A program made the position numbers and the translations under genes. The notes under the pieces were generated by a model. It was not told the origin of the DNA. It ran no database searches and saw nothing but the letters and a program-made list of their open reading frames with translations. 64,000 nucleotides of DNA from an uncultured bacterium (GTDB taxonomy: Bacteria; Fidelibacterota; UBA2242), in contig CAZPQN010000003.1 in NCBI GenBank assembly GCA_964588795.1, positions 18,639 to 82,638 on the forward strand, in the 5' to 3' direction. Of the stretch, positions 15,728-52,930 are shown piece by piece (the stretch's first letter is position 1; every line of letters begins with the position of its first letter).

Positions 15728-18571
15728 TCACAAGGCAATTCCGGCCAAAACCAGCTCCATTCGGGTGTCGCGTTCATGTACACGGTAGGTGTAGCGTACT
15801 CCACCGGTCAAATCAACCGGCATGGTAAAAAGATTAAAATCGCACTGCAATTCAATACCGAACGCGTCGTAAAGCACAGACCGTGATCCTGTTTTCCCAG
15901 ATGCCCGGTCGCCGAACAGATTGCTCCAGATACGTTTACAATTAAACAGGGCACCCAGGGCGAAATCCGGATAAAACAGCGGAAAGGCATAATCCAACGA
16001 AGCGCGTCGGAAATGATCGTAGTAGGTATAGGCATAACCGCGAACAAACGATACCGGACTTACAAAACGATAATTGGTTGGATCCTGAATCTCGACCGCG
16101 CCTCCGATCACCAGGCTATGATGGCGCGCTAGCCCCGGGAAATAGAGATTACCCTCGCCGACTAACTGCCGACCCTGATAATCCATCTTAAACGGCGTAT
16201 GCCGCAATGTTAATTGCCCATCAATACCGGCAACCGGTCGTAAATCGCGCAGGGCTTTACTCCGATACTTCTGGTAGACGACCTGGTAATGGAACGGGCA
16301 GAAACTGCCGTCATTATTCACGTAGCTTTTAGGTTGTTCTTTTCCTTTCAGCGAGGTAATGCCAAAACCGGCGTTGAGCTCCAGCCGTCGCGAATAGACT
16401 CCGCTCGAAAGATCACAGGGAAGCCGCAGATTCAATGCCAGGTTACGCTCTGTCCAGACATCGGTCACCGTTCGCCTCCCATTATTGATCAGGGCAAATC
16501 TTCTTCCGCAACCACTGCTGACGTCAACAATCGGACGGATACCGGCATAACTGCAGGTGGCATTGACGAACAGCGCTTTCTCGCTGGCGTAATAGAGCAG
16601 GGCTGGACTGAATTGAAAGGTATTTAAAAGATCAGTAGAAAAACAACCGGCCGCTAAAAATCCCGAGACCGGAATGAAGTACCAGCTGTGAATATTGATC
16701 AGGTGGGCGCGGGGACTGTATTCTGTCGAGGGATAAATTATATCAGGTATTTTCTCCGGCATTAGCGGATTTTGCGGATTTTCTTGCTCCATAATAGGTG
16801 CAAAATAATCAATCGGACGCCGGGCAACCGTTTCCAACGCTCGCCAGTTGACCGTATCCAACGTCGTGCATTTGATGTCCAATCCTTTAACCGCGTAATC
16901 GCTGTAAACCAACTGGTTCCCTTTTACCATCGGCGAAAATGCCCCAAAACGACTGGAAATTACCTGATACCGACGACCGTTCATCAGGTCGAGGGCATAG
17001 ATATTGTCAATCCCGGAGTACGAAGAGCTGTAGAAAATATAGTCGCCTGCCTGGATAGGATTGGATACATTTTCGTCACTTTCCGGCAGGAGGTCGCGGA
17101 ACTCTCCGCTGTGACAATCGAGCCTAGTCAGTGTCTTACCATTAAATTGCTGGCGGGTCATAATTAAAAACTTCCCGTCCGGAGACCATGACGGTTCCTT
17201 AAGAAAAGAATTGGCAGGTGCCGGAAAGCGCTTGATTGTTGCCCCGGTTCGAGGATCAAGTAAAACTATCGCACAACGACGTTCCGGTGTGAATTCAATC
17301 GCGGCGATATTTTTCCCGTCTGGCGCGGGTGCCGGGGCAAAGTACCGTCCGCCGCTGGTAATTTCCTGCACACGTCCGGTCTGCAGGTCACAGACCGCGA
17401 CATCCGAGGCTATTTGACTTCCCCAAAACCTGTCGGTGTTGTAGACACTCCAGGTCGCTAACTGTCCATTGATGGCGACCCGCCCCGGTCCTGATACAAA
17501 AGTCAGGGGTTTTTCCCGCCCGTCAGCCTGAATTCGAACCAGCGTCGGAATATCGGCCATCCCGGAAATGGTGACCCAGAGTGCACCGTCCGCAGACCAT
17601 TGTGGCCAGCGGTACTGGGTCCAGACTTTTTTCGGTTTCTTATTCAGCGGCGTAACTTCTTCGAAGATCAAATTAGCCGATTGCCATTGCCAAAGAGAGT
17701 CCAGCTCATTCATCGTCGCCTGATAGATCTGGCGTGAATTTTTCCCGATAATACGCTTTGCCATCCGGCTGAAAGCAAAAGGACTGTAACTACGCTGGGC
17801 AGAGCGAGTTATGATCCGCGCCCAGGCATCAGCACCATAGCATCGCCGGACATGCGTCGTCATCAAGTATCCTAAGGTATAATGATTCGGGTAATAGTCG
17901 CGATAAGAGTTTAAGAAAGCCTTGTAATACGAATAACGGAATCCCGAAAGCTCTACCGCTCTTACGCCAATATCAAATTCCGGTAAACGGCCACGACCAC
18001 TGCGAGAGAGCGCGGTTTCGATTCCCACCGCGTCACCTTCCCAGAACCAGGCCGGAGTCTGCCAGAAACTGAGCACGCGTCCGACGTCGCCAAATAAAAA
18101 ACTCGCCAGGCGAGTGAAACCCCGCTCATGATAATCGAACTGTGCCATGTGCCGCCCTTCATGCACCGCGAGCAGGTTGTACCATTCTTCCGTGCCGGAG
18201 AAATTATCCTGCGGAGGCGTGGCAAACCACTCACTTTTCCGCGGCGCCAGACTGACATAGCCATTGGCGACGGCGCTCCGATTAGAAAGCACGACCGGCC
18301 ACCGGCGACTTTCGACTCGCAGGGTCTTGCGCAAAGGTTGATGCAAATATTCGAGAGTGTTGGCGACCCGCTGGGCTTCGGATTCGATTTCAGCCGGAAA
18401 AACTATTGCATAATGCTGAGTTTGCAGTTGACGCCAGTGAATGCCCGGCGGTGGCTGATTCGAGTCGAGCATCTGCGCGTATACCAGAGCAGAAAGATAG
18501 TGCATAGCGAAAATGGTATAGCCGATGTTCTTAAAAAAGACGTTGGCCGGCGGTTTCCAGGAATTTTTCAT
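15728..18571 (-). CDS. large secreted protein (947 aa): N-terminal HExxH zincin-like domain, central TolB/PD40-like beta-propeller repeats, beta-strand-rich C-terminal region
   Basis: Signal-like MHYLSALVYAQ; AVHEGRHMAQFDY (HExxH); repeated ...SPDGK.../...APDGKNIA... propeller-like blades; Tyr/Gly-rich C-terminus. Confidence 0.5.
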   Translation of the reverse strand: MKNSWKPPANVFFKNIGYTIFAMHYLSALVYAQMLDSNQPPPGIHWRQLQTQHYAIVFPAEIESEAQRVANTLEYLHQPLRKTLRVESRRWPVVLSNRSAVANGYVSLAPRKSEWFATPPQDNFSGTEEWYNLLAVHEGRHMAQFDYHERGFTRLASFLFGDVGRVLSFWQTPAWFWEGDAVGIETALSRSGRGRLPEFDIGVRAVELSGFRYSYYKAFLNSYRDYYPNHYTLGYLMTTHVRRCYGADAWARIITRSAQRSYSPFAFSRMAKRIIGKNSRQIYQATMNELDSLWQWQSANLIFEEVTPLNKKPKKVWTQYRWPQWSADGALWVTISGMADIPTLVRIQADGREKPLTFVSGPGRVAINGQLATWSVYNTDRFWGSQIASDVAVCDLQTGRVQEITSGGRYFAPAPAPDGKNIAAIEFTPERRCAIVLLDPRTGATIKRFPAPANSFLKEPSWSPDGKFLIMTRQQFNGKTLTRLDCHSGEFRDLLPESDENVSNPIQAGDYIFYSSSYSGIDNIYALDLMNGRRYQVISSRFGAFSPMVKGNQLVYSDYAVKGLDIKCTTLDTVNWRALETVARRPIDYFAPIMEQENPQNPLMPEKIPDIIYPSTEYSPRAHLINIHSWYFIPVSGFLAAGCFSTDLLNTFQFSPALLYYASEKALFVNATCSYAGIRPIVDVSSGCGRRFALINNGRRTVTDVWTERNLALNLRLPCDLSSGVYSRRLELNAGFGITSLKGKEQPKSYVNNDGSFCPFHYQVVYQKYRSKALRDLRPVAGIDGQLTLRHTPFKMDYQGRQLVGEGNLYFPGLARHHSLVIGGAVEIQDPTNYRFVSPVSFVRGYAYTYYDHFRRASLDYAFPLFYPDFALGALFNCKRIWSNLFGDRASGKTGSRSVLYDAFGIELQCDFNLFTMPVDLTGGVRYTYRVHERDTRMELVLAGIAL

Positions 18572-18580
18572 ATAATGATC

Positions 18581-18612
18581 GTCAAGTGCAAATTTAACAG
18601 GAGTAAATTACT
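18581..18612. promoter_or_regulatory. possible weak operator-like half sites (GTAATTTAC / AAATTTGCAC) upstream of the 947-aa gene
   Basis: Partial resemblance to the arms of the TetR palindrome GTAAATTTGACTGA; 10-40 nt upstream of the 947-aa gene start (18571), within the 157-nt gap after the OMP gene. Confidence 0.2.
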
Positions 18613-18728
18613 GGATGAACCAGGAAAATCAAAAATGGGTCGCGTACCCTCTGGTGACATCTCATGGAGATTTAACGATTTCAGCGTCCCCTGTGGTCAA
18701 TTCTGCAAAAGTGGCTCGGCGGCGGAGC

Positions 18729-20207
18729 CTAAAAGCTGATTTTCAAACGCAGGTACGGCCAGAGATTCTCCATCAGGTCAATTTCCTTGACTCCGTACAG
18801 CGTGTAGCGGCCGTCGAACTCGGAACCGCGTGAGCCTCCTAAAATGAAAGCCCCTACGGTGATGTCAAAATTGTTATAGGGCGAGTAACTGTAACCCGGC
18901 AGGACCGCAAAACTGCCGTCGTCCAGATTAGTAAAGAAAGCCAGGTTGAATTTATGGAAATCCTTAACCGTTTTTTCCAACATCAGGAACGAATAATTGC
19001 GGGCGTTGACCAGTTTCTCACCGGACAGGATTGTCATAAGATTGTAGTCTTTTTTATTTTTAGCACCGGAACCCTGATAGTAGTACTCCATCCGCGTGTC
19101 GACCTCAACCGCCGAGATCCGGTAGTCGAAACCCAGACACATTTCCAAATTATCGGCGGTACGATAATTTTTCAGGACGAATTTTTTATCCCGGTTATCG
19201 CGGGGCAAGCGGAGGACAAACTCACCATATACCCCGCAATCCCCGATTGCTCCGGCAAAATCAAAACCCGCGAAATAACTGCGCTTATAATAAGGATGAC
19301 GCGGCAGGTCAGCCAGCAGCTGGGCCAAGGCTCCCTGCTTGAACATTTCGAGAACCGTGACAGTGTCGCCCGCCGCCAACAGCTCCGCCATTGCCTGGTT
19401 GGCGACTATTCCCTGAATATAAGCCATGCCAGCCTGGGTCAGGACTGCGTCCAGCGGGCGAGTATCCAAATCATTATAGAGCACTTCTCTGATCCAGCTC
19501 AGTGAAATGTCGAACGCGCCGGCGATGCCATTCAGTTTAATGCCATAGGGCAGGTTTTTAATGTCGCTGTCCTCCTGATAGGCGGTCTTTTTCTGGGTCT
19601 TATCCTGGAAAGCGAGGTAGGCTTCGATGGAGAAACGGTTGGAAAGAGCATAACTGGGCAATAGTGCCATGGTACCCGGCGTATCCTCCGTCACCATATC
19701 CAGAAACGGTGGAAAAGCCACCCGCGCCGTGGGATTGAAAACATATCCTGTGCCCCAGGCGACCGGGAACTTCCCAAACTGCAAATCAAAATCACCAAAA
19801 CTGGCCATCCCCCAGACATGATCGAAAAACAGGCGCTGATTAAAATCCTCCAGTGGAAAATCGCTCTGCGAAAATCCGGCAATACCCAACCTTTCATAAA
19901 GCAGATAGGGATTTTGATTGCCTACGTTGGACTGGTAGGAAAATTCCATATGAAAGCGCAGGTTCTGCTCCGGTCGCCAGTCACCCTTCAAGCGTAGTAA
20001 AAGAGCATCCCCGAACGTGGGCCGGGAAAACTGCTGATTTCTAAAATTCAGACTGGATTGAAAATAGTTTATGAGGTAGCCGTAAAGACCGGTCGATTCA
20101 TCGGAACCGCCCATACTCGAATCCTCATTCGGCGCACTTGCTACTGTCAGATCAGCACCCAGCCCGCTGATTAAAAAAACCATCGAAAGATAGATTATTT
20201 TTGGCAT
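18729..20207 (-). CDS. putative outer-membrane beta-barrel protein
   Basis: Signal peptide MPKIIYLSMVFLISGLGADLTVASA; alternating amphipathic pattern; C-terminal ...YLRLKISF ending in Phe typical of OM barrels. Confidence 0.5.
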   Translation of the reverse strand: MPKIIYLSMVFLISGLGADLTVASAPNEDSSMGGSDESTGLYGYLINYFQSSLNFRNQQFSRPTFGDALLLRLKGDWRPEQNLRFHMEFSYQSNVGNQNPYLLYERLGIAGFSQSDFPLEDFNQRLFFDHVWGMASFGDFDLQFGKFPVAWGTGYVFNPTARVAFPPFLDMVTEDTPGTMALLPSYALSNRFSIEAYLAFQDKTQKKTAYQEDSDIKNLPYGIKLNGIAGAFDISLSWIREVLYNDLDTRPLDAVLTQAGMAYIQGIVANQAMAELLAAGDTVTVLEMFKQGALAQLLADLPRHPYYKRSYFAGFDFAGAIGDCGVYGEFVLRLPRDNRDKKFVLKNYRTADNLEMCLGFDYRISAVEVDTRMEYYYQGSGAKNKKDYNLMTILSGEKLVNARNYSFLMLEKTVKDFHKFNLAFFTNLDDGSFAVLPGYSYSPYNNFDITVGAFILGGSRGSEFDGRYTLYGVKEIDLMENLWPYLRLKISF

Positions 20208-20218
20208 CGTGCTTTTCC

Positions 20219-20962
20219 CTATTTGTAAAACCGCATTGGATTAAAATATTTATCATCAAGCGGCACGTCGTATTCAGCATCGTGCATTATGACGACGGTT
20301 TTGCTCTGCTTAATCAGGTTCAGCATCGTCATGCGCGTGGGCATCTGGCGCCCGGAAATCATTTTGTACTCTTCGATCAAGAGATCCTTTTTATGACCAT
20401 CAGCAGCGGTATAATATTCAATTTTAGGCGTCTGATAGTTTTCTTTTAAAATGGTGATGACCACTTTGGAATAGGATGATTCCTTTTTCGGAGTTCCCTC
20501 CAGCGTCCAGCTTTTGGCGTCCGATTTGAGAATTTTAAAGGAATAACTCTCTTCCATATTGCCGCCACCGAGATCTTCATAAGTGAAATCCCCACCGACG
20601 CCCTGTACTGTCTGATCCTTCGATTTGGCGGCGATTTTACGCACCCGCCCTGTGGACGGAAAGTAGACCCACTGATCGCCGGAAAGAGACAGAATCCGCA
20701 ATCCTTGAATGGACTTTGGGGTAATGAACTCCATGTAGCTGTTATCTTCGCCTTTACCGTAAGCCAAGACCTTCATTTCCCGAAAATTACTATTATCACC
20801 GACATAAGGATAGGTCAACATGCTCATTTTGGCGCTACTACTGCTGGTCTTGCCCATTTCATCCACTTTGCGAATGATAGTCAGCGCCTCATCCTCGGCT
20901 GAGGCTGAAATCGCCACAAGCACAATCATCAATCCCCTTAAAAATCGTCCCGTATATTGCAT
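20219..20962 (-). CDS. LolA-like periplasmic protein (outer-membrane lipoprotein-sorting-like, non-canonical LolA fold family)
   Basis: Signal peptide; about 220-aa mature domain; paralogous to ORF 52187..52930 (shared ...GGDFTYEDL... / ...GSDLSYEDM... block); immediately downstream of MMPL exporter. Confidence 0.55.
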   Translation of the reverse strand: MQYTGRFLRGLMIVLVAISASAEDEALTIIRKVDEMGKTSSSSAKMSMLTYPYVGDNSNFREMKVLAYGKGEDNSYMEFITPKSIQGLRILSLSGDQWVYFPSTGRVRKIAAKSKDQTVQGVGGDFTYEDLGGGNMEESYSFKILKSDAKSWTLEGTPKKESSYSKVVITILKENYQTPKIEYYTAADGHKKDLLIEEYKMISGRQMPTRMTMLNLIKQSKTVVIMHDAEYDVPLDDKYFNPMRFYK

Positions 20963-20976
20963 GGTTTCCTCCTTGG

Positions 20977-23697
20977 TTATTTTTGCTTCTGGTCAAAAGT
21001 CAACAGGGCGGGTAAAATGAATATGGCGGTCAACAGGCAGGTCGTTATACCCACGAAGAGAATCCGCCCCATGGAATTTACTGATCCAAATCGTCCGATC
21101 AACCCCAACGAACCAAATCCGATCATCGTCGTCAAGGCTGACAGTAAAACGCCTTTACCGGTGTAGCGATAGACGGTTTTGATGTCTTGTTCAACCCGGA
21201 AACGGTGCGCGATATGAATACCGAAGTCGATACCCATGCCGATGACGAGAGGTATCATGGCGATGTTAATGAAATTTAGTCGCTGCCCCAATAATGGATA
21301 CAAACCACCCATCCAGAGCATGCCGATAATTAGCGGCGCCGACGCGAAAACCACATATTTCAGGTTCCGGAAATTCAGAATCAGGAAAAAGAGCACTGCC
21401 GCAAAAATATATATGCCTGCCCTCCCGGAAGCATTAATAACCTCGTCTAACCAGGCTGTCAGGATTTGGGTTACCCCGGTGATTCTCGGCGATACCCGCG
21501 CAAGGGAATTGTTAAAATGGCGAATTATGTCAATTTTATCCAGAATACCTCCTTCCGGATAGATCATGATCAGATTCCGGGTTCCCGTTTGATCGAACAT
21601 GCCATTCCGGACGGATTCCGGCAGGTCGTCAATGGTCATCGGGCGGCGGGCCTGACACATCCGGGTAACGATCGCATCCATTTCCTTAGCAAAATAATAA
21701 TCCAGCTGGGTCAGACGCCGGGCGTATAGTTGCGGATCGCTGGCGATAAGCCCAATCAAATTTTTAAAAATTTCCCGCCCCGACTGACCCACCTCCGCTC
21801 CAAAAATCTCGCGAATCATGGCATTGCGCCTTTTGACGATCTTATTGTTCTCGCCCAATCCGGCGACTGAGAGATCGCTCATCTCAATAATATTCCATTC
21901 CAGGCGCTGAATTTCCTGCACAAATCTTTCAATATCGGCACTAGAATAGTGTATCTGACGGTAGCGGGTGGGCATTTTACGCAGCTTGGCGATGGCCGCC
22001 AGCCGAGCCTGCTGTTCCTCTTCCGGGGGAAAGAAGTAGGACACCGAACTGATCTCGGCGATCATCGGAGTTTTTTCCAGTTTTTCGGTAATCGTGCGAG
22101 CTTCCTCAATGCTATTGGTTATCACCATCGAGGCAAAGGGGGTCATCTCGAATTTTTCCATGACTTTCTGATATTGGATCATCGCGGGCATATCCTGCGG
22201 CTCGAGCTTCATGATATCATATTCAAGTCGGTTCAGGAATATCGCCCCAGACAGTCCGACGGTGATCAGCCCGCTCAATATCAGGGATAGCTTTCGATGT
22301 CTGTAAAGCGTCTGGCTGATGTCGGCTAAAAACTGATAATTGATGTTGGGCAGGTGGGTTTTGCTGACATCCTTTTTTCCCCACCAGAGTAAGAGGGATG
22401 GTAATATGAAAAACATCGCTAAAAAACAATTAATGATGCCGGTCCCCATAATCAGCCCGAATTGCTCAAAAGCCTGGACGCCGGCAGCGGACATGACAAA
22501 AAAAGCGATCGCCGTCGTTATTGCGGCTAAAAATGTACCCATCCCGGCTTTTTGATAGGTAAGACGCAGGGCTTCGGGCGGTTCATAACCGTCCTCACGG
22601 TAAGTGGTAAAATTGGTTATGATCTGAATCCCGTAATCCACTCCTAACCCGATGAGCAGGATGCCCATAATGCTGGTCATCATGTTGATCTCTTTAATTG
22701 TCACGCCAACGAATCCGTAATTAAATACAACCCCCATAATCAGGACCAGCAAAACGAAAATTATTGAACGCAACTGGCTGAAGGAAAAAATAAACAGCAA
22801 TAAAATCAGAACAATAGCCACTATTGACGGAACCGCCATATCGAAGCTGAGTGCGTCCTGTTCATCGCTCTGAGTTGGTAAATCGCCGGTATACCCGACA
22901 TGTAAATCAGGATACTTGGCATTCATAGCACTCTGTACTACTTTTATCTCATGCATGAACTCGATCACTTTTTCTACTTCGATCGCGTTAATTGCGGGGG
23001 TGATAGTGAATAAAAGCATGCTGTTATCATGGTTAAACCGGTACGGATCGCCGTAGAGAAATGTCTCCGCTAGGACCTGGCCCTGCTCTGCAACCGGCAA
23101 CGTGTCCGGATTGGATAGAAAAACCCGCAAACTGGTAAAGAAGTTCTCTATTTGCGAAAGCATGGCAACCGCATCGTTTTCCTGCTTGTTGGTCTCCAGC
23201 TCCTCTTCGGCTTCGTCGCCTGTGTAAGTCTCCTCAAAAGAATTATTCAGCGCGGTGACGAATGGTAAAAGATTCAGTTGCGACAAGGTTTGGCTGGTCT
23301 TTTCAATGTCCTTGGCCTTGGACAGCATCAAACCCCAATCATCAATGAACTGGCGATCGGTTTTCAGGTTGATGGCTTTGATACTCTGCACCAGCTTCTC
23401 ATTGGCGCGGACCATGGCAACGAAATCCTCGGCACACTGGCCCATGCGTATTTTATCCTGACCCTCGATGGTGATCATGGCGGTAGCTCCACCGGAAAAA
23501 ACCGAATCAACTTCGAGATAGCTGGCAATTTTGGGATCTTCTGCTGATAGGAGGTCCTTGATCTCGGTTTTCGTTTCAATATTTTGCGCCGCGATCAGAC
23601 TAAGCACAAAAAGCACTACCGCCACAAACGGTATCCATTTGTAAAAACGAACTACGAAATTAGCGACGATTTGCATGATTTTTCCCTCTGATTTCAT
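20977..23697 (-). CDS. MMPL/RND-superfamily exporter (predicted 12-TM, two large periplasmic loops)
   Basis: 906 aa, two repeated 6-TM bundles each preceded by a large hydrophilic loop; characteristic of COG1033 exporters. Confidence 0.8.
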   Translation of the reverse strand: MKSEGKIMQIVANFVVRFYKWIPFVAVVLFVLSLIAAQNIETKTEIKDLLSAEDPKIASYLEVDSVFSGGATAMITIEGQDKIRMGQCAEDFVAMVRANEKLVQSIKAINLKTDRQFIDDWGLMLSKAKDIEKTSQTLSQLNLLPFVTALNNSFEETYTGDEAEEELETNKQENDAVAMLSQIENFFTSLRVFLSNPDTLPVAEQGQVLAETFLYGDPYRFNHDNSMLLFTITPAINAIEVEKVIEFMHEIKVVQSAMNAKYPDLHVGYTGDLPTQSDEQDALSFDMAVPSIVAIVLILLLFIFSFSQLRSIIFVLLVLIMGVVFNYGFVGVTIKEINMMTSIMGILLIGLGVDYGIQIITNFTTYREDGYEPPEALRLTYQKAGMGTFLAAITTAIAFFVMSAAGVQAFEQFGLIMGTGIINCFLAMFFILPSLLLWWGKKDVSKTHLPNINYQFLADISQTLYRHRKLSLILSGLITVGLSGAIFLNRLEYDIMKLEPQDMPAMIQYQKVMEKFEMTPFASMVITNSIEEARTITEKLEKTPMIAEISSVSYFFPPEEEQQARLAAIAKLRKMPTRYRQIHYSSADIERFVQEIQRLEWNIIEMSDLSVAGLGENNKIVKRRNAMIREIFGAEVGQSGREIFKNLIGLIASDPQLYARRLTQLDYYFAKEMDAIVTRMCQARRPMTIDDLPESVRNGMFDQTGTRNLIMIYPEGGILDKIDIIRHFNNSLARVSPRITGVTQILTAWLDEVINASGRAGIYIFAAVLFFLILNFRNLKYVVFASAPLIIGMLWMGGLYPLLGQRLNFINIAMIPLVIGMGIDFGIHIAHRFRVEQDIKTVYRYTGKGVLLSALTTMIGFGSLGLIGRFGSVNSMGRILFVGITTCLLTAIFILPALLTFDQKQK

Positions 23698-23721
23698 AAT
23701 GCCCCCATCAGTAAGTCTATT

Positions 23722-24405
23722 TCATTTTCTGGGATCTTTAAAACGTGATGCAGACATGCTTTTCATAATTTCATTAAGATTAAGCATTTCGATTTGATCC
23801 CGGGTCAGCGCTGAATAAAGCTTGCCAAAAGAATTGGCGAAAATGGTTGAAATGGTCTTCAAATCGGTATGATAGTACTCGCACCATTCATCACTAAATA
23901 TTACAAAGGAAAACAAGGGCGCAAAAAAGCAAAAGAAACCACTTAACAGCTGGGCCTGATTCTTTTCCAGTCTAATGCCTAATCGAGCCGAAATAGCATA
24001 ACCGGCATCGAAATTCTGATCGAAATAGCGGAAAATATTCAGGTGGGGGGTCAATTCTACATCTTTGATGGACTCGGCAAATGCAATTTTAATCGCGTTT
24101 TTATTGGCCATCAAAAAAGGTAGCGTGTTGTTCAAAATGATCGTGTCGATACCAAGCGTCGGTTCTGCAAGCCAGGCTTCGGTGATGGATTGTTTGATGA
24201 CCACCGACTTTTTCACGAAGTCATCCATGAGCGAGGCCAGGATTTCTTCCTTGCTCTTGAAATAATAGTAGATGAGTGACTTGGTTATTCCCGCCGTTTT
24301 GGCGATCTGATCAATACCGGTGGCGTCGAAACCGCGCTGAGCAAAAAGGGCTTCAGCCGTCTGCAGGATCTTCCGGCGGATGTTTTTTCTTGGTTGCTTG
24401 ACCAT
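23722..24405 (-). CDS. TetR/AcrR family transcriptional regulator
   Basis: N-terminal HTH AEALFAQRGFDATGIDQIAKTAGITKSLIYYYFKSKEEIL. Confidence 0.85.
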   Translation of the reverse strand: MVKQPRKNIRRKILQTAEALFAQRGFDATGIDQIAKTAGITKSLIYYYFKSKEEILASLMDDFVKKSVVIKQSITEAWLAEPTLGIDTIILNNTLPFLMANKNAIKIAFAESIKDVELTPHLNIFRYFDQNFDAGYAISARLGIRLEKNQAQLLSGFFCFFAPLFSFVIFSDEWCEYYHTDLKTISTIFANSFGKLYSALTRDQIEMLNLNEIMKSMSASRFKDPRK

Positions 24406-24420
24406 AGCGGTACTCTTTCC

Positions 24421-24452
24421 GTAAATTTGACTGACCGTTCAGTCAAATTTAC
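24421..24452. promoter_or_regulatory. perfect palindromic operator GTAAATTTGACTGA-ccgt-TCAGTCAAATTTAC (14+4+14), plus a third half-site-like copy at about 24469-24480
   Basis: Directly read; located 16-47 nt upstream of the tetR start codon (24405) on the leading edge of the TetR-MMPL-LolA-like-OMP operon. Confidence 0.6.
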
Positions 24453-24565
24453 GAAGAACGCCCTTGTCTGTCAAGTCAATTTTTCACCCTTTAATTATTC
24501 CCCGCGCCTTTTCTTAAGCGAAAGTAGGCCACCAACAATTAGCGTGATGGATGAAATGCCAGGAT

Positions 24566-47820: not shown

Positions 47821-49005
47821 TTGTATATTTGGCGATTTTTTTCTAATCTGTCAGCAGACATGCAGACGACTAGGACACATTATCAGAGGTACCGATTAAT
47901 TGGCTCGTTGTTATTCCAGATGGGAATCGCCGGTAGCGTGATTGGTCAGGGTCAGACCAACCCGGCAAGTACCTGGGATTTTCGCGGACAGTTGGAACTG
48001 AGTGGCAGTCTGAGCCGTTATCAGCAGATCTGGTCGAGACGGGGAACCGCCCGGTATCTGCCATCAATCGAATACCAGCACCAATTGTCAGAGGCCAGGA
48101 CTCTCGGCGCGGATTTCTCTGTCATCCTGTTCGCGGATAGTATAAAAAAACCTGCCCCCGAAAACGTTGATCTCTACCGTCTGAGCTTCCGCTATGCGAC
48201 TCCCCAAAGTGAATGGCAGTTCGGTTTGCAGAAAATCAATTTTGGACCGGCTCAGATTCTGCGTTCCTTGATGTGGTTCGACCGCCTTGATATTCGGGAT
48301 CCGCTGAAAGCTACCACCGGCGTCTGGGGACTACGCTGGCGCTATAATTACCTGAATAATGCCAACGCCTGGCTATGGGTGCTCTATGGCAACGACGGTA
48401 CCAAAGGGATGGAAACGGTGCCGACAGCGCAAGGTCGCCCGGAACTCGGCGGTCGTTTTCAAATTCCAGTACGCTCCGGCGAAGTGGCGATGACAATACA
48501 TCAACGGGCGCTTGCCCAGCCCTTCGATAAGGATGAAACCCGGGTGGCCTTCGACGGACGCTGGGATTTCATCTTGGGCTGGTGGCTCGAAGCAGTCTGG
48601 CATAATAATAGCCCGGACCTCAAATATGCGGTCACCGGGGGAGTGGATTACACCTTCGGAATTGGCAATGGCCTTTATACCATACTCGAGCATAAAACCA
48701 ATTTTTTCCCAACCAGCAATCGCTTTCCTGAAATGAATCTGACCGGGCTGACCCATTGGCACGGCTACGATCTGCTTAAGGTCTCTGCATTGATGCTCAC
48801 TTACCCTCTGACGCTGTTCGATAACCTGGTGGCGGTAGGTTATTATTCATGGGCTACGAATGAGTTTTTCGAATATTTGGGCTGGCAGAGAACCTTCGAC
48901 AGAGTGATTATTAACCTGAGCTTTTTTAATTACCCTGGACCGACACTGGCTACGGGAAAAATGGCTGGTTCTGGCGCCCAGCTTATGTTAATTTACAATC
49001 ATTGA
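47821..49005 (+). CDS. putative outer-membrane beta-barrel protein (start uncertain)
   Basis: No cytoplasmic motif; alternating aromatic/hydrophilic pattern; loosely resembles ORF 18729..20207; upstream of Lol-like ABC operon. Confidence 0.35.
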   Translation: MYIWRFFSNLSADMQTTRTHYQRYRLIGSLLFQMGIAGSVIGQGQTNPASTWDFRGQLELSGSLSRYQQIWSRRGTARYLPSIEYQHQLSEARTLGADFSVILFADSIKKPAPENVDLYRLSFRYATPQSEWQFGLQKINFGPAQILRSLMWFDRLDIRDPLKATTGVWGLRWRYNYLNNANAWLWVLYGNDGTKGMETVPTAQGRPELGGRFQIPVRSGEVAMTIHQRALAQPFDKDETRVAFDGRWDFILGWWLEAVWHNNSPDLKYAVTGGVDYTFGIGNGLYTILEHKTNFFPTSNRFPEMNLTGLTHWHGYDLLKVSALMLTYPLTLFDNLVAVGYYSWATNEFFEYLGWQRTFDRVIINLSFFNYPGPTLATGKMAGSGAQLMLIYNH

Positions 49006-49031
49006 CAGTGGTTTGATAAAGGGGACAATTC

Positions 49032-49733
49032 ATGCACAACTCGGCAATTATCACAATCCAGAATCTGGTTAAAGACTATCCCATAGGTGGCGGTTCATTC
49101 CGGGCGTTGAGCGACATCAGTCTGCAAATCGGTCAAGGTGAATTTATCGGTTTGGTCGGCCCGAGTGGCAGCGGCAAAACAACTTTGCTGAATATCATTG
49201 GTGCACTTGATAATCCCACCGCGGGACATACCGAAGTCCTGGGACATACCATCGAGAACCTCAGCCACCGGCAGGCCGCACGGTTGCGCAACTCCTATCT
49301 CGGATTTATTTTCCAGACCTATAACCTGTTGCCCGTGTACAATGTTTACGAAAACGTGGAATTTCCGTTGCTATTATTGAAAAAGAGTCAAAATGAACGT
49401 CGGGAACTGACTCTGCGCGCTCTGGAATGGGTGGGCTTGACCGATAAAATCAAGTCCCGTCCGGCTCAACTCTCCGGTGGGGAGTGCCAGCGCGTCGCCA
49501 TTGCCCGGGCTATGGTCAAGCAACCCCAGGTCGTGTTGGCCGATGAACCGACCGCCAACTTGGACGCCGCCAATTCCCACCACATCTTGCAGACCATGGC
49601 GAAGCTCAACACCGAGCTCAAAACGACCTTTATCTTCGCGACCCATGATGACAAGGTCATCGGCTACCTGCGCCGCAAAGTCAGTCTGGCGGATGGTCAC
49701 GTGATAAAAGACGAAAACATCGTACAATCCTGA
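49032..49733 (+). CDS. ABC transporter ATP-binding protein, LolD/MacB-type
   Basis: Walker A GPSGSGKTT, signature LSGGECQRVAIARA, Walker B VVLADEPT, 233 aa. Confidence 0.85.
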   Translation: MHNSAIITIQNLVKDYPIGGGSFRALSDISLQIGQGEFIGLVGPSGSGKTTLLNIIGALDNPTAGHTEVLGHTIENLSHRQAARLRNSYLGFIFQTYNLLPVYNVYENVEFPLLLLKKSQNERRELTLRALEWVGLTDKIKSRPAQLSGGECQRVAIARAMVKQPQVVLADEPTANLDAANSHHILQTMAKLNTELKTTFIFATHDDKVIGYLRRKVSLADGHVIKDENIVQS

Positions 49734-49746
49734 ACAGGAGAGTAGC

Positions 49747-50919
49747 ATGTTAGCATTAAAACTTGCTTTCCGCAACCTGATGGGCGCCCGTTTGCGCACC
49801 TGGTTGAATGTATTTGTACTATCCCTGGCTTTCGTCTTAGTTATCTGGTTCAAAGGAGTACTGAACGGCTGGGACCGCCAGGCGCGCCGTGAAACGATTA
49901 ACTGGCAAATCGGTGGCGGGCAGTACTGGCAAGAGAATTACGACCCTTACGACCCTTTCACAATTGAAGATAGCCACGCGCTTTTGACCGATTCGATCCA
50001 AAAAGAAATCGGACAGGGACATCTGACCCCCATGCTGATCAGTCAGGCGACGATCTACCCGCAGGGACGCATCCAGAATGTCAAATTGCAGGGCGTTGAT
50101 CCAAATCAGAAAATCCTCGCCCTGCCTTCCGAGTATCTGAACACGACGGACGGTGGCATTCCGGCGATGATTGGCGAACGCACCGCCCGCAACAGTAAAT
50201 TGTCCATTGGGGACTTTGTCACCATCCGCTGGCGGGACGCCAATGGAACTTTCGACGCCGATGAAATCCGTATCGTGCACATCTTCAAAACTGACGTGGG
50301 TACGATGGATATGGGGGTCGTATGGATTCCCTTGAAAAAGCATCAGGAAATGATGCGCCTGTCCAACTCCGCGACTATCCTTACCACCGCTCAGGAAGCC
50401 GGTTTTCGGGGGCCATTCACCGGCTGGGATTTTAAGGATCATGCCTATCTGTTAAAAGAAATTGAAGCTATGATCGAGACCAAGTCAATCGGTGGTATAG
50501 TCATGTTCCTGTTTCTGATGTCGCTGGCGATGCTGGCGATTTTTGATACTCAGGTATTATCTATTTTCCGACGCCAGAAAGAAATCGGCACGCAAATCGC
50601 CCTGGGTATGACCCGCCCTCAGGTCGTGACCCTGTTTACCATTGAAGGAGCGATGCATTCCGTTTTTGCCGCAATCTTAGCCGCAATTTACGGTGCGCCG
50701 CTACTGGCTCTGCAAGCCAAAGTCGGTTGGAAGATGCCCGCCGGAACCGACGATTTCGGTCTGACCATTTCCGAAACGATCTACCCGGCTTACTCGGTAG
50801 GATTGGTGCTGGGCACAACCCTTTTGGTGATGATCACCACGACTATTGTCAGTTATCTTCCCGCCCGCCGGATTGCGAAGATGAATCCGACCGATGCCAT
50901 CAGAGGAAAAATCCAATGA
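49747..50919 (+). CDS. ABC transporter permease, FtsX/LolC/LolE family
   Basis: N-terminal LALKLAFRNLMGARLRTWLN; TM1, large periplasmic domain, 3 C-terminal TMs. Confidence 0.75.
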   Translation: MLALKLAFRNLMGARLRTWLNVFVLSLAFVLVIWFKGVLNGWDRQARRETINWQIGGGQYWQENYDPYDPFTIEDSHALLTDSIQKEIGQGHLTPMLISQATIYPQGRIQNVKLQGVDPNQKILALPSEYLNTTDGGIPAMIGERTARNSKLSIGDFVTIRWRDANGTFDADEIRIVHIFKTDVGTMDMGVVWIPLKKHQEMMRLSNSATILTTAQEAGFRGPFTGWDFKDHAYLLKEIEAMIETKSIGGIVMFLFLMSLAMLAIFDTQVLSIFRRQKEIGTQIALGMTRPQVVTLFTIEGAMHSVFAAILAAIYGAPLLALQAKVGWKMPAGTDDFGLTISETIYPAYSVGLVLGTTLLVMITTTIVSYLPARRIAKMNPTDAIRGKIQ

Positions 50920-52190
50920 TCAAGTTTATCTTACGCGGTTTGTTACGCGATCGGCACCGTAGTTTGTTTCCATTCCTGATTGTGACGTTGGGAGTCTGGA
51001 TTGCGGTCTTCATGCAAGCCTATATGAATGGCGTCCTGTCAGATATGGTTGATTATAACGCCCGTTATGCCACCGGACATGTCAAGGTCATGAGCCGGGC
51101 TTATGCTGAAAATGTCGATCAACTCCCCAATGACTTAGCCTTGACCGGCGTCTCGAATCTCATGCAAAGACTCCAGCAGGAATACCCCGATATGACCTGG
51201 GTCAGACGTATCCAGTTCGGTGGATTACTGGACATTCCCGATGATAATGGAGAAACCCGGGCACAATGCATGGTCATCGGGATGGGCGTGGATTTACTGA
51301 GTCCCGCAAGTTCGGAAATCAACACCCTCAATATCGGCAATTCGCTCGTGTCCGGACGCATGCCACGCGAAGCGGGCGAAATTCTGGTCAGCGTGGACAT
51401 GGCGGAAAAACTGGGCGTTCAGCCCGGCGAAGTCGCCACGCTTTTGTCCTCCAGTATGTACGGCAGTATGGTTATTTACAATTTTAGCGTGGTCGGCACT
51501 CTTCGATTTGGGGTGCAGATGATGGATCGGGGTGCAATGATCGCGGATGTGACTGACGTGCAGGCAGCACTCGACATGCAGGACGCCGCCGGTGAAATTA
51601 TCGGTTATCTGCCGAATCGTGTCTATGATGATTTGGCCTGTCAGGACATCGTCCGCAAATTCAACGCGGGATATGAGCGGGATACGAGTGAGTTTGCACC
51701 GGTCATGGGCACTCTGAAGGAAATAAGCAATTTGGGTGGCTACCTCGATATGGCTTCCAGCTTCTCAAGTATCATCGTGGCGGTCTTCATGATGGTAATG
51801 TCGGTGGTGCTCTGGAACGCCGGACTTTTAGGCGGCTTGCGACGCTATGGCGAAGTCGGCGTGCGCTTAGCCATTGGTGAGAACAAGAGCCATATTTTCC
51901 GCACGATGATTTACGAGTCAATGGCTATCGGGCTATTTGGTTCGATTACTGGAACAGTCTTTGGTCTGGGCTGCGCTTACTGGATGCAGGTCAAGGGATT
52001 GGACATCAGCAATCTGATGAAAAATGTCAATATGATGATCCCTACTATTTTTCGCGCCCGAATCACCCCGACGACCTACTACATCGGCTTTTTCCCTGGC
52101 CTGCTGGCCACGGTGTTGGGTACGGCTCTGGCTGGCATCGGCATTTACCGGCGGCAGACAGCCTCATTATTCAAGGAGTTGGAAGCATGA
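50916..52190 (+). CDS. ABC transporter permease, FtsX/LolC/LolE family (second copy)
   Basis: ATGA overlap with upstream permease stop; MIKFILRGLLRDRHRSLFPFLIVTLGVWIAVF; same topology. Confidence 0.75.
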   Translation: MIKFILRGLLRDRHRSLFPFLIVTLGVWIAVFMQAYMNGVLSDMVDYNARYATGHVKVMSRAYAENVDQLPNDLALTGVSNLMQRLQQEYPDMTWVRRIQFGGLLDIPDDNGETRAQCMVIGMGVDLLSPASSEINTLNIGNSLVSGRMPREAGEILVSVDMAEKLGVQPGEVATLLSSSMYGSMVIYNFSVVGTLRFGVQMMDRGAMIADVTDVQAALDMQDAAGEIIGYLPNRVYDDLACQDIVRKFNAGYERDTSEFAPVMGTLKEISNLGGYLDMASSFSSIIVAVFMMVMSVVLWNAGLLGGLRRYGEVGVRLAIGENKSHIFRTMIYESMAIGLFGSITGTVFGLGCAYWMQVKGLDISNLMKNVNMMIPTIFRARITPTTYYIGFFPGLLATVLGTALAGIGIYRRQTASLFKELEA

Positions 52191-52930
52191 AAATCGTAAC
52201 GGGTGGTTTAGTACTTTGCCTTTTAGTACAGTTCCCCACCGCTCAGACTCTTAGCGGGCGGGAAATCCTGGACCGGGTCGATCAAAACCGCATCGTGGGA
52301 CAGGCCATCAGCGTGACCACGATGATCATTCACGGACGCAGTGGTACCAGAACCATCCAGGCGCGTGCCTGGAGCGATGGCACCGAAAAAGCCTTCGTGG
52401 AGTACCTTTCGCCCGCTCGTGAAAAAGGCAAAAAAATGCTGAAACTGGCCAAACAGCTCTGGATTTACACTCCGGAACCAAATGACCGGATCATCGCCAT
52501 CTCCGGTCACCTTTTGCGGCAATCCGTGATGGGCTCTGACCTATCTTACGAAGATATGCTTGAAAATGACATCTTACAGGATCAGTACGAAGCCCGTGTG
52601 TTGGGACAGGAAACACTGCATGATCGGCAATGCTATTTACTCGAGTTGACAGCACGCATGGACAACATCGCCTACCATTCCCGCAAAATCTGGGTCGACA
52701 GCGAACGCTATTTGCCATTGAAAGAAAATCGCTATGCCCGCGGGGGTAAACTGCTGAAAACTACCACCGTGCATTCCGTATTTCAGGTTGACGGGCACTG
52801 GTTGCCGAAGAAGATGACATTCCGCGATATGCTGTCGAGCGGCGGCGGCACGGAATATATCATTGACTCGCTTGATTTCAAGGTTAACATCCCCGATTAC
52901 CAGTTTACCAAAGCCGCTCTGCGCAAATAG
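52187..52930 (+). CDS. LolA-like periplasmic protein (paralog of 20219..20962)
   Basis: ATGA overlap with permease stop (translational coupling); signal peptide; shares ...SDLSYEDM... block with the other copy. Confidence 0.55.
   Translation: MKIVTGGLVLCLLVQFPTAQTLSGREILDRVDQNRIVGQAISVTTMIIHGRSGTRTIQARAWSDGTEKAFVEYLSPAREKGKKMLKLAKQLWIYTPEPNDRIIAISGHLLRQSVMGSDLSYEDMLENDILQDQYEARVLGQETLHDRQCYLLELTARMDNIAYHSRKIWVDSERYLPLKENRYARGGKLLKTTTVHSVFQVDGHWLPKKMTFRDMLSSGGGTEYIIDSLDFKVNIPDYQFTKAALRK

Follow-up and report, generated by a model that had tools for sequence, protein, structure and literature searches.

On the minus strand of a 64-kb stretch of contig CAZPQN010000003.1, from an uncultured bacterium of the Fidelibacterota, a gene for a TetR-type regulator is followed by genes for an MMPL/RND transporter, a LolA-like protein, an outer-membrane protein (OMP) and a 947-aa protein. 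This stretch is called the window here. The functional unit in it is probably a four-gene autorepressed operon made up of tetR, an HpnN-like RND pump, a LolA-like protein and an outer-membrane barrel. With moderate confidence, we read this operon as a system for carrier-mediated export of a hydrophobic cargo across the envelope, with the 947-aa gene standing independent of it. Sequence comparison gives strong evidence that tetR and the RND, LolA-like and OMP genes form one regulatory and functional unit, because the order of the last three genes (the trio) is conserved, regulators are found upstream of them and the core of the operator is conserved. The operon boundary is therefore corrected from five genes, as drawn in the initial annotation, to four.

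Conservation and regulation of the four-gene unit

Conservation was examined in 79 species-level loci, each of which encodes a relative of the barrel. These loci come from Marinimicrobia/Fidelibacterota, KSB1, many Spirochaetes, diderm Bacillota (Hydrogenispora, Capillibacterium) and Fibrobacterota, with further loci from Cloacimonadota, Delongbacteria, WOR-3 and one PVC bacterium. Upstream synteny was counted in the 55 loci with at least 4.2 kb of upstream sequence. The MMPL and LolA-like genes were found upstream of the OMP gene in 55 of 55 loci, and the order MMPL, LolA-like, OMP on one strand was kept in 54 of them. Order and strand are kept across at least eight phyla. In Oceanispirochaeta sp. 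M1 and in a complete Spirochaetaceae genome, neighboring genes of the trio either overlap or have 8 nt between them. When the flanking open reading frames (ORFs) of 81 loci were clustered, only local regulators recurred across phyla and no universal accessory gene was found.

Some lineages vary the arrangement. In Spirochaetaceae operons, the LolA-like gene can be preceded by two MMPL genes in tandem (L003 3556-9180; also L024, L026, L040 and L044). Close relatives of the window have a gene for a 223-aa membrane methyltransferase of the PEMT/ICMT family between the RND and LolA-like genes (Table 1), where the window has a 14-nt gap.

The five minus-strand ORFs of the window lie head to tail, with successive gaps of 24, 14, 11 and 157 nt from tetR to the 947-aa gene. 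Both the coordinates and the gaps are exactly as given in the initial annotation, which had described five consecutive minus-strand genes separated by 11-24 nt and then by 157 nt. Its proposal of a TetR-operator-controlled unit of an MMPL/RND transporter, a LolA-like protein and an outer-membrane beta-barrel also holds, since the domains, the fold, the tight spacing and the strong cross-phylum synteny agree.

The best sigma-70-like match in a 9.2-kb scan, TTGACA-17 nt-TAAATT, lies upstream of tetR and agrees at 10 of 12 positions. Shuffled sequence yields as many promoter-like sites as the region does, so this site is supported by its position and its conservation and not by the count. Both its -35 and its -10 regions are kept in a relative (L001). 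The -10 region (24446-24453) reads TAAATTTG; this also fits TAnnTTTG, the -7 element of Bacteroidota-type promoters (FCB group).

The putative operator overlaps the -10 region, with the hexamer falling within its upstream arm, and ends 15 nt upstream of the tetR ATG. It is a perfect palindrome whose arms (24420-24434 and 24439-24453) are 15 nt each, 100% complementary and separated by a 4-nt spacer. No other perfect inverted repeat of 15 nt or more with a short spacer occurs in the 64-kb window; by a back-of-envelope estimate, ~0.002 such repeats per window are expected by chance. A perfect palindrome ahead of the operon had been noted at 24421-24452. The palindrome is real, and its limits are widened to 24420-24453. 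Its core, TGACTGAnCGnTCAGTC, is kept at the same position upstream of tetR in L001/L002 and in L004/L005, and is conserved in relatives whose TetR is only 48-57% identical. No convincing second copy of the operator was found in the window. The only candidate is a site with two mismatches inside a gene, which is within the shuffled range (2 of 100 shuffles gave as many matches).

The tetR product matches TetR_N (PF00440) over residues 13-58 (2.9e-18; 65.8 bits compared to a cut-off of 24 bits). No Pfam TetR_C family matched its C-terminal domain, and no NCBIfam equivalog was reached at cut-off, with weak similarity to FasR, FadR and KstR. The position of tetR as the first gene of the operon is an autoregulated layout, and ligand-dependent regulation by TetR is plausible. 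Of 53 related loci, 29 have a TetR gene upstream on the same strand, and 5 further loci have more divergent TetRs. In Fibrobacterota-type loci (L067, L068, L075, L076, L079 and L088), two other proteins stand in the TetR place ahead of the RND gene. Judged by eye, one is a small GntR/YtrA-like protein and the other looks SPFH/Band-7-like.

The genes on either side of this region were identified with Pfam. The upstream neighbor, on the same strand, is a 2-oxoacid:ferredoxin oxidoreductase operon, and the downstream neighbor is a P-type copper ATPase.

Table 1. Positions of the features discussed. Coordinates are those of the window unless a related locus is named.
Feature	Position	Strand	Description
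Promoter-like site of the operon	24446-24474	minus	-35 TTGACA 24474-24469, 17-nt spacer, -10 TAAATT 24451-24446
Putative TetR operator	24420-24453		Perfect palindrome CGTAAATTTGACTGA-ACGG-TCAGTCAAATTTACG (15+4+15)
tetR	23722-24405	minus	227 aa, first gene of the predicted operon
MMPL/RND transporter gene	20977-23697	minus	906 aa
LolA-like gene	20219-20962	minus	247 aa
OMP gene	18729-20207	minus	492 aa
Spacer between the OMP and 947-aa genes	18572-18728	minus	157 nt
947-aa gene	15728-18571	minus	Neighbor, outside the conserved module
Parallel module	47821-52930	plus	394-aa unclassified protein, ABC ATPase, two FtsX/MacB-type permeases, LolA-like (PF17131), from Pfam
Recurrences of the parallel module	L090 7001-12064; L091 7001-12036		
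PEMT/ICMT-family methyltransferase gene	L001 8374-9045; L008 3720-4391; L010 2153-2821		

The pump, the carrier and the barrel

Profile comparison confirms the 906-aa product as a predicted inner-membrane transporter of the HpnN-like MMPL/RND (HAE3) type. It matches the MMPL profile PF03176 (2.2e-26; 93 bits compared to a cut-off of 20.5 bits) and the Sterol-sensing profile (26.5 bits, above the Pfam cut-off). Among NCBIfam models it scored 372.5 bits with TIGR03480, the HpnN model (cut-off 751.85), 240 bits with NF052374 (cut-off 1100), 198.5 bits with BstA (cut-off 1400) and 182.6 bits with TIGR00921, the HAE3 model (cut-off 351.9). The MMPL/RND assignment of the initial annotation is borne out by these profile hidden Markov models (HMMs), as HpnN-like and without reaching the HpnN equivalog cut-off.

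The best relatives in the PDB are HpnN 5KHN and 6WU0, and the alignment with 6WU0 runs end to end. GLGVD354(Y) of the pump aligns with the Asp of GLGVDF in transmembrane segment (TM) 4 of HpnN, and T856/T857 stand opposite the TT pair of HpnN. In HpnN, the counterparts of D354 and T856/T857 are presumably proton-relay residues. The pump has an additional Asp, D824, in GMGIDF, where HpnN has Ala. Hydropathy gives ~12 TMs (1+5 / 1+5) and two periplasmic loops at ~41-287 and ~489-755.

The LolA-like protein matches PF17131 at 4.8e-43 (147.4 bits compared to a cut-off of 30 bits) over 179 of 184 profile positions, so its assignment by profile HMM stands. This family, LolA_like, is now named TP_0789-like. 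The similarity to DUF1329 (PF07044) is sub-threshold (19.4 bits, cut-off 23.1) and covers 40 residues only. The single match among the LolA/LolB models is to LolA3_fam, at 19.8 bits compared to a cut-off of 83 bits. PDB relatives are 9TP6 and the structural-genomics entries 3BK5, 3BUU and 4Z48 of the LolA superfamily.

From its sequence, the LolA-like protein is predicted to be secreted, soluble in the periplasm and not lipidated. It has a signal peptide and zero cysteines. Most of its orthologues have type-I signal peptides, and only 5 of 67 show a lipobox-like motif. The lack of cysteine and the rarity of the lipobox-like motif argue for a soluble rather than a lipid-anchored protein, and rule out a role as a lipoprotein anchor. 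A canonical LolA/LolB chaperone was also rejected, since the score is far under the cut-off and the conserved partner is an RND pump, not LolCDE.

The 492-aa OMP has a signal peptide and is a closed, antiparallel beta-barrel of the 18-strand type ending in ...KISF. It fits the 18-strand class (Occ/OprD, AlgE, maltoporin and Wzi folds), including the C-terminal aromatic residue, which confirms the earlier assignment as an outer-membrane beta-barrel. No Pfam match was found even at E<=10, and there was no match in NCBIfam or among PDB profiles. Distant members of the family gave only sub-threshold matches to Wzi and Porin_O_P. Pfam did not detect the suggested "DUF1302-like" relationship in the OMP or in these distant members. 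At 50% identity the family has ~2,715 representatives (E<=1e-3); it is unannotated and lacks a model in both Pfam and NCBIfam. Spirochaetes contribute more homologues than any other group.

One loop of the barrel (residues ~246-304) holds a conserved helical hairpin insert of ~55 residues with the motifs GDT and FKQGAL. The hairpin is confined to the Marinimicrobia-type clade; at this place, homologues from spirochaetes and elsewhere have 1-13 residues.

The proposed route and its alternatives

We propose that, without inducer, a TetR dimer bound to the palindrome would block RNA polymerase, and that a hydrophobic ligand, either the cargo or a related compound, would release it. The RND pump, powered by the proton-motive force, would take a very hydrophobic cargo out of the inner membrane's outer leaflet. 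It would pass this cargo to the soluble LolA-like protein, whose beta-clam cavity would shield it in the periplasm. The LolA-like protein would then dock on the dedicated barrel, which would insert the cargo into the outer membrane or release it through the barrel. Such a route would be carrier-mediated, as in Lol and Mla, and would not be a continuous duct of the AcrAB-TolC type. For the cargo, we prefer a membrane-partitioning hydrophobic compound (terpenoid, hydrocarbon or lipid) that would be inducibly exported. This preference is due to the local repressor and to the precedent of AmeABCD, a monoterpene-tolerance system described below.

Several observations weigh against this proposal. 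We infer the cargo, the direction of transport and the physical contacts, and co-transcription of the four genes is predicted only from how they are spaced and from synteny. Overall, the scans for promoters and terminators do not rise above chance, and TetR is absent or undetected in ~40% of loci. The pump is under every NCBIfam equivalog cut-off (HpnN, BstA and HAE3). DUF1302 (PF06980) was rejected as the family of the OMP, with no detectable similarity and no Pfam match at E<=10, and the analogy with AmeABCD is architectural only, because there is no COG4447 propeller in the conserved module. The trio is 76-82% identical to its orthologues in L001 and L008, compared to 76-81% for the flanking pyruvate:ferredoxin oxidoreductase genes. 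This housekeeping-like level of conservation suits a xenobiotic cargo no better than an endogenous lipid. Among characterized proteins, the pump is closest to HpnN, a hopanoid shuttle, and BstA, a sterol transporter, and the PEMT/ICMT-type methyltransferase inserted in the operons of close relatives may hint at a lipid-like cargo.

Because of this affinity to HpnN and BstA, the housekeeping-level conservation and the inserted methyltransferase, delivery of an endogenous lipid is a serious rival, and we hold it as a tentative alternative. A self-made hopanoid-like, sterol-like or other amphiphile would travel from the inner to the outer membrane by a route like that of HpnN or BstABC, and TetR would tune expression to lipid status and not to a toxic compound. 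The conservation of the trio, as strong as that of core metabolism genes, the above-cut-off Sterol-sensing match of the pump and the weak similarity of TetR to FasR, FadR and KstR point the same way. TetR regulators also control lipid metabolism and mmpL genes. However, the pump scores far under the HpnN and BstA cut-offs, and a repressor-first operon with its operator over the promoter is more typical of inducible efflux. Lipid-biosynthesis genes in general, and hopanoid-biosynthesis genes in particular, were found neither among the ORFs covered by the Pfam scan, which lie outside about 38.7-45.5 kb and 56-64 kb of the window, nor as recurrent neighbors of the trio in the 79 loci.

The same three proteins could also work inward, with the barrel admitting a hydrophobic substrate, the LolA-like protein ferrying it and the RND protein inserting it into the inner membrane, as in the logic of NPC2 and NPC1. 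Characterized bacterial RND/MMPL/HpnN proteins are exporters, and AmeABCD behaves as one. Genes for the catabolism of hydrophobic substrates neither flank the trio in the window nor recur in the related loci, and uptake is unlikely. What speaks for it is the Sterol-sensing similarity, common to NPC1, Patched and Dispatched, and the parallel with the alkane-uptake role proposed in hydrocarbon degraders. A Thalassolituus MMPL-LolA-like fusion and its porin-like neighbor are induced on C28 alkane, which is a growth substrate. In addition, Pseudomonas putida mutants in DUF1302/DUF1329 genes show defects on fatty esters and Tween 20 (10.1101/2020.07.04.188060).

Another reading keeps the five genes together and makes the 947-aa protein a component of the exporter, either as an AmeC-like propeller partner or as a processing protease. 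The 947-aa gene is adjacent and on the same strand, the 157-nt gap holds no strong terminator (fold z -0.24), AmeABCD-type systems include a beta-propeller subunit, and the adjacency of the OMP and 947-aa genes is kept in the closest relatives (L008 and L009). We nevertheless consider this reading very unlikely. In the 52 species loci with enough downstream sequence, a 947-aa homologue was found within the locus only once. In L001 and L011, the OMP gene is separated from the gene for a 951-aa homologue by a restriction-modification pair that lies on the opposite strand and consists of a BglII-type endonuclease with its methyltransferase. Other lineages have unrelated genes after the OMP gene: UvrA in a relative whose OMP is 55% identical, and a reverse-strand TonB_C gene in a Spirochaetaceae genome. 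The 947-aa family occurs as a solo gene in unrelated contexts in Bacteroidota (Adhaeribacter) and Aminicenantes, and in the same genome pairs the 947-aa protein is 45-47% identical compared to 76-82% for the trio. Its propeller is TolB-like and sits on an Omp85-like barrel, and so is not a Ycf48/COG4447 protein.

The spacer itself also argues against a five-gene operon. Compared with L008, the spacer has diverged except for a block reading TTGATT-16 nt-TAATTT (18632-18605), which is conserved and which we take as a candidate promoter of the 947-aa gene. The candidate -10 of this gene reads TAATTTAC. Two weak hairpin-plus-U runs (18729-18705 and 18649-18625) are present in the spacer, and neither is conserved in L008. 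The membership of the 947-aa gene in the operon, as first annotated, is therefore not upheld, given its near absence beside the trio, the inserted restriction-modification pair, its solo occurrence, its faster divergence and its own conserved promoter-like block. The gene is better described as a lineage-specific neighbor that would be independently transcribed and encode a separate outer-membrane protein.

The 947-aa protein has a signal peptide, an N-terminal HExxH domain (~45-300), a six-bladed TolB-like propeller (~318-570) and an Omp85-like barrel (~627-942), and looks from its sequence like an outer-membrane-anchored putative metallopeptidase. Neither the HExxH domain nor the C-terminal barrel matched Pfam. 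The propeller and the barrel dominated a fold search with the model of the protein, which gave no informative match for the HExxH domain. H137/E138, E178 and E185 in this domain are invariant in the family. The family is large, unannotated and conserved over its full length of ~930-1000 aa, with members in Bacteroidota, Aminicenantes, KSB1, Gemmatimonadota and Marinimicrobia. The insertion that separates its gene from the OMP gene in L001 (11640-13213; also in L002 and L011) consists of a BglII-type restriction endonuclease and an N6/N4 methyltransferase, and is missing from the window.

A second carrier module and comparison with known systems

The window contains a second module with a LolA-like protein, encoded on the plus strand (Table 1). 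The two LolA-like proteins are distant paralogues (22% identity, E 3e-13). The same five-gene order was found in a Desulfobacteraceae contig behind a helix-turn-helix regulator and in an Ignavibacteria contig behind a TetR. The first gene of the module encodes a 394-aa protein that has no Pfam family and 1,744 homologues, none of which is annotated. Its true start is probably an internal Met near 47860, which gives 381 aa, since P0383 (381 aa) is 100% identical. The two FtsX permease ORFs, as listed mechanically (49747-50919 and 50727-52190, plus strand), overlap by 193 nt. The second of them probably starts later, because the homologous genes in L090 and L091 overlap by only ~4 nt.

The initial annotation had proposed two parallel sets of exporter, LolA-like protein and OMP. 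A second conserved module with a paralogous LolA-like protein does exist, but the candidate OMPs are not detectably homologous. Homology between the 492-aa OMP and the 394-aa protein was rejected, with an hhalign probability of 0.2%. The general picture of two parallel modules is reasonable. ABC-FtsX-LolA-like genes directly adjoin the RND trio in four loci, from diderm Bacillota, Cloacimonadota, an unclassified metagenome-assembled genome and Fibrobacterota (L051, L054, L067 and L079). This adjacency hints at a functional link between the two modules.

The locus described here bears on how HAE3/HpnN-type RND pumps get very hydrophobic cargo across the periplasm and into or through the outer membrane. 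HpnN is regarded as working alone, and the partners in AmeABCD-type systems are uncharacterized. The locus defines a minimal version with three parts, a pump, a soluble LolA-fold carrier and a dedicated barrel, which is strictly syntenic across at least eight phyla. It also offers experimental handles, namely a defined operator and repressor for ligand discovery and a cultured host, Oceanispirochaeta sp. M1. We found no paper on the PF17131-type trio or on its barrel family. The trio may be an unrecognized and widespread trans-periplasmic lipid shuttle that works alongside Lol, Mla and Lpt with a logic like that of NPC2/NPC1, a suggestion we regard as rather doubtful. If it is true, this shuttle would be the route by which the cargo of HpnN-type transporters reaches the outer membrane in Spirochaetes, Fibrobacterota, Marinimicrobia and diderm Firmicutes, and the TP0790-TP0789 pair of Treponema pallidum could belong to it. 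With the ABC-FtsX-LolA-like module, the shuttle would then form a modular family of carrier-based envelope transporters. If the system is merely another inducible solvent pump, the value of the locus lies mainly in annotation, as it adds a new family of OMPs and corrects the boundary of the operon.

In Castellaniella defragrans, the AmeABCD system is made up of an HAE3 RND pump, a DUF1329 protein of the LolA superfamily, a DUF1302 OMP and a COG4447 propeller; it gives monoterpene tolerance and contributes to the export of Nile Red (PMC6394551). Genes of such DUF1302/DUF1329/BNR/COG1033 clusters cofit in transposon screens of Shewanella, Kangiella and Pseudomonas (10.1101/072470). The trio is an architectural analogue of this type of HAE3 system, built with different parts. 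Both have an HAE3/COG1033-type RND pump, a LolA-superfamily protein and a dedicated outer-membrane barrel in place of a membrane fusion protein adaptor and TolC. AmeABCD-type clusters are linked to hydrophobic compounds, and we propose the same for the trio. In contrast to AmeABCD, the LolA-like protein here is a short PF17131 protein (247 aa) and not DUF1329 (~450 aa), and the barrel, whose family lacks a Pfam entry, shows no detectable similarity to DUF1302. The conserved module has no COG4447/Ycf48-like propeller gene (none was recurrent in the 79 loci), the RND gene comes first in the order behind a repressor-first layout, and the hosts are Marinimicrobia, Spirochaetes, Fibrobacterota and diderm Bacillota, not Proteobacteria.

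HpnN, known from Burkholderia multivorans (5KHN/5KHS) and Rhodopseudomonas palustris, is the best relative of the pump among solved structures and in NCBIfam. The two share a 12-TM topology and two periplasmic domains, and the TM4 Asp and the TT pair align. They differ in that HpnN, as described, works without co-encoded partners in the periplasm or the outer membrane, while the pump here reaches 372 bits of the 752-bit cut-off, has the extra Asp in GMGIDF and has no hopanoid genes seen nearby.

The Lol and Mla systems (LolCDE-LolA-LolB and MlaFEDB-MlaC-MlaA/OmpC) resemble the trio in having an inner-membrane transporter, a soluble carrier of hydrophobic cargo and an outer-membrane acceptor, and the carrier here has a LolA-type fold. 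They differ in that the energizer here is a proton-motive-force RND pump and not an ABC transporter, and the acceptor is an integral 18-strand barrel and not a lipoprotein such as LolB or MlaA. The carrier is also not a canonical LolA (LolA3, 19.8 compared to 83 bits). In Thalassolituus oleivorans, TOL_3187 is described as an MMPL protein fused to a LolA-like domain and TOL_3188 is its porin-like neighbor without known domains; both are induced on C28 alkane, and the published reading is uptake or OMP export (PMC6304351). Compared by description only, this pair resembles the trio in placing MMPL and LolA-like together, followed by a porin-like protein. The difference is that MMPL and LolA-like are fused in TOL_3187 and separate here.

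In Treponema pallidum, the locus-tag numbering places the RND protein TP0790 next to TP0789, the PF17131-type namesake of the carrier family. No functional study was found in the literature on TP0788, TP0789, PF17131 or lipid transport by a LolA-like protein with an RND pump. A published model has TP0790 acting as an AcrB together with the MacA-like TP0965 and TolC-like factors (PMC8407342). In the light of the trio, this AcrB-style model may need revisiting.

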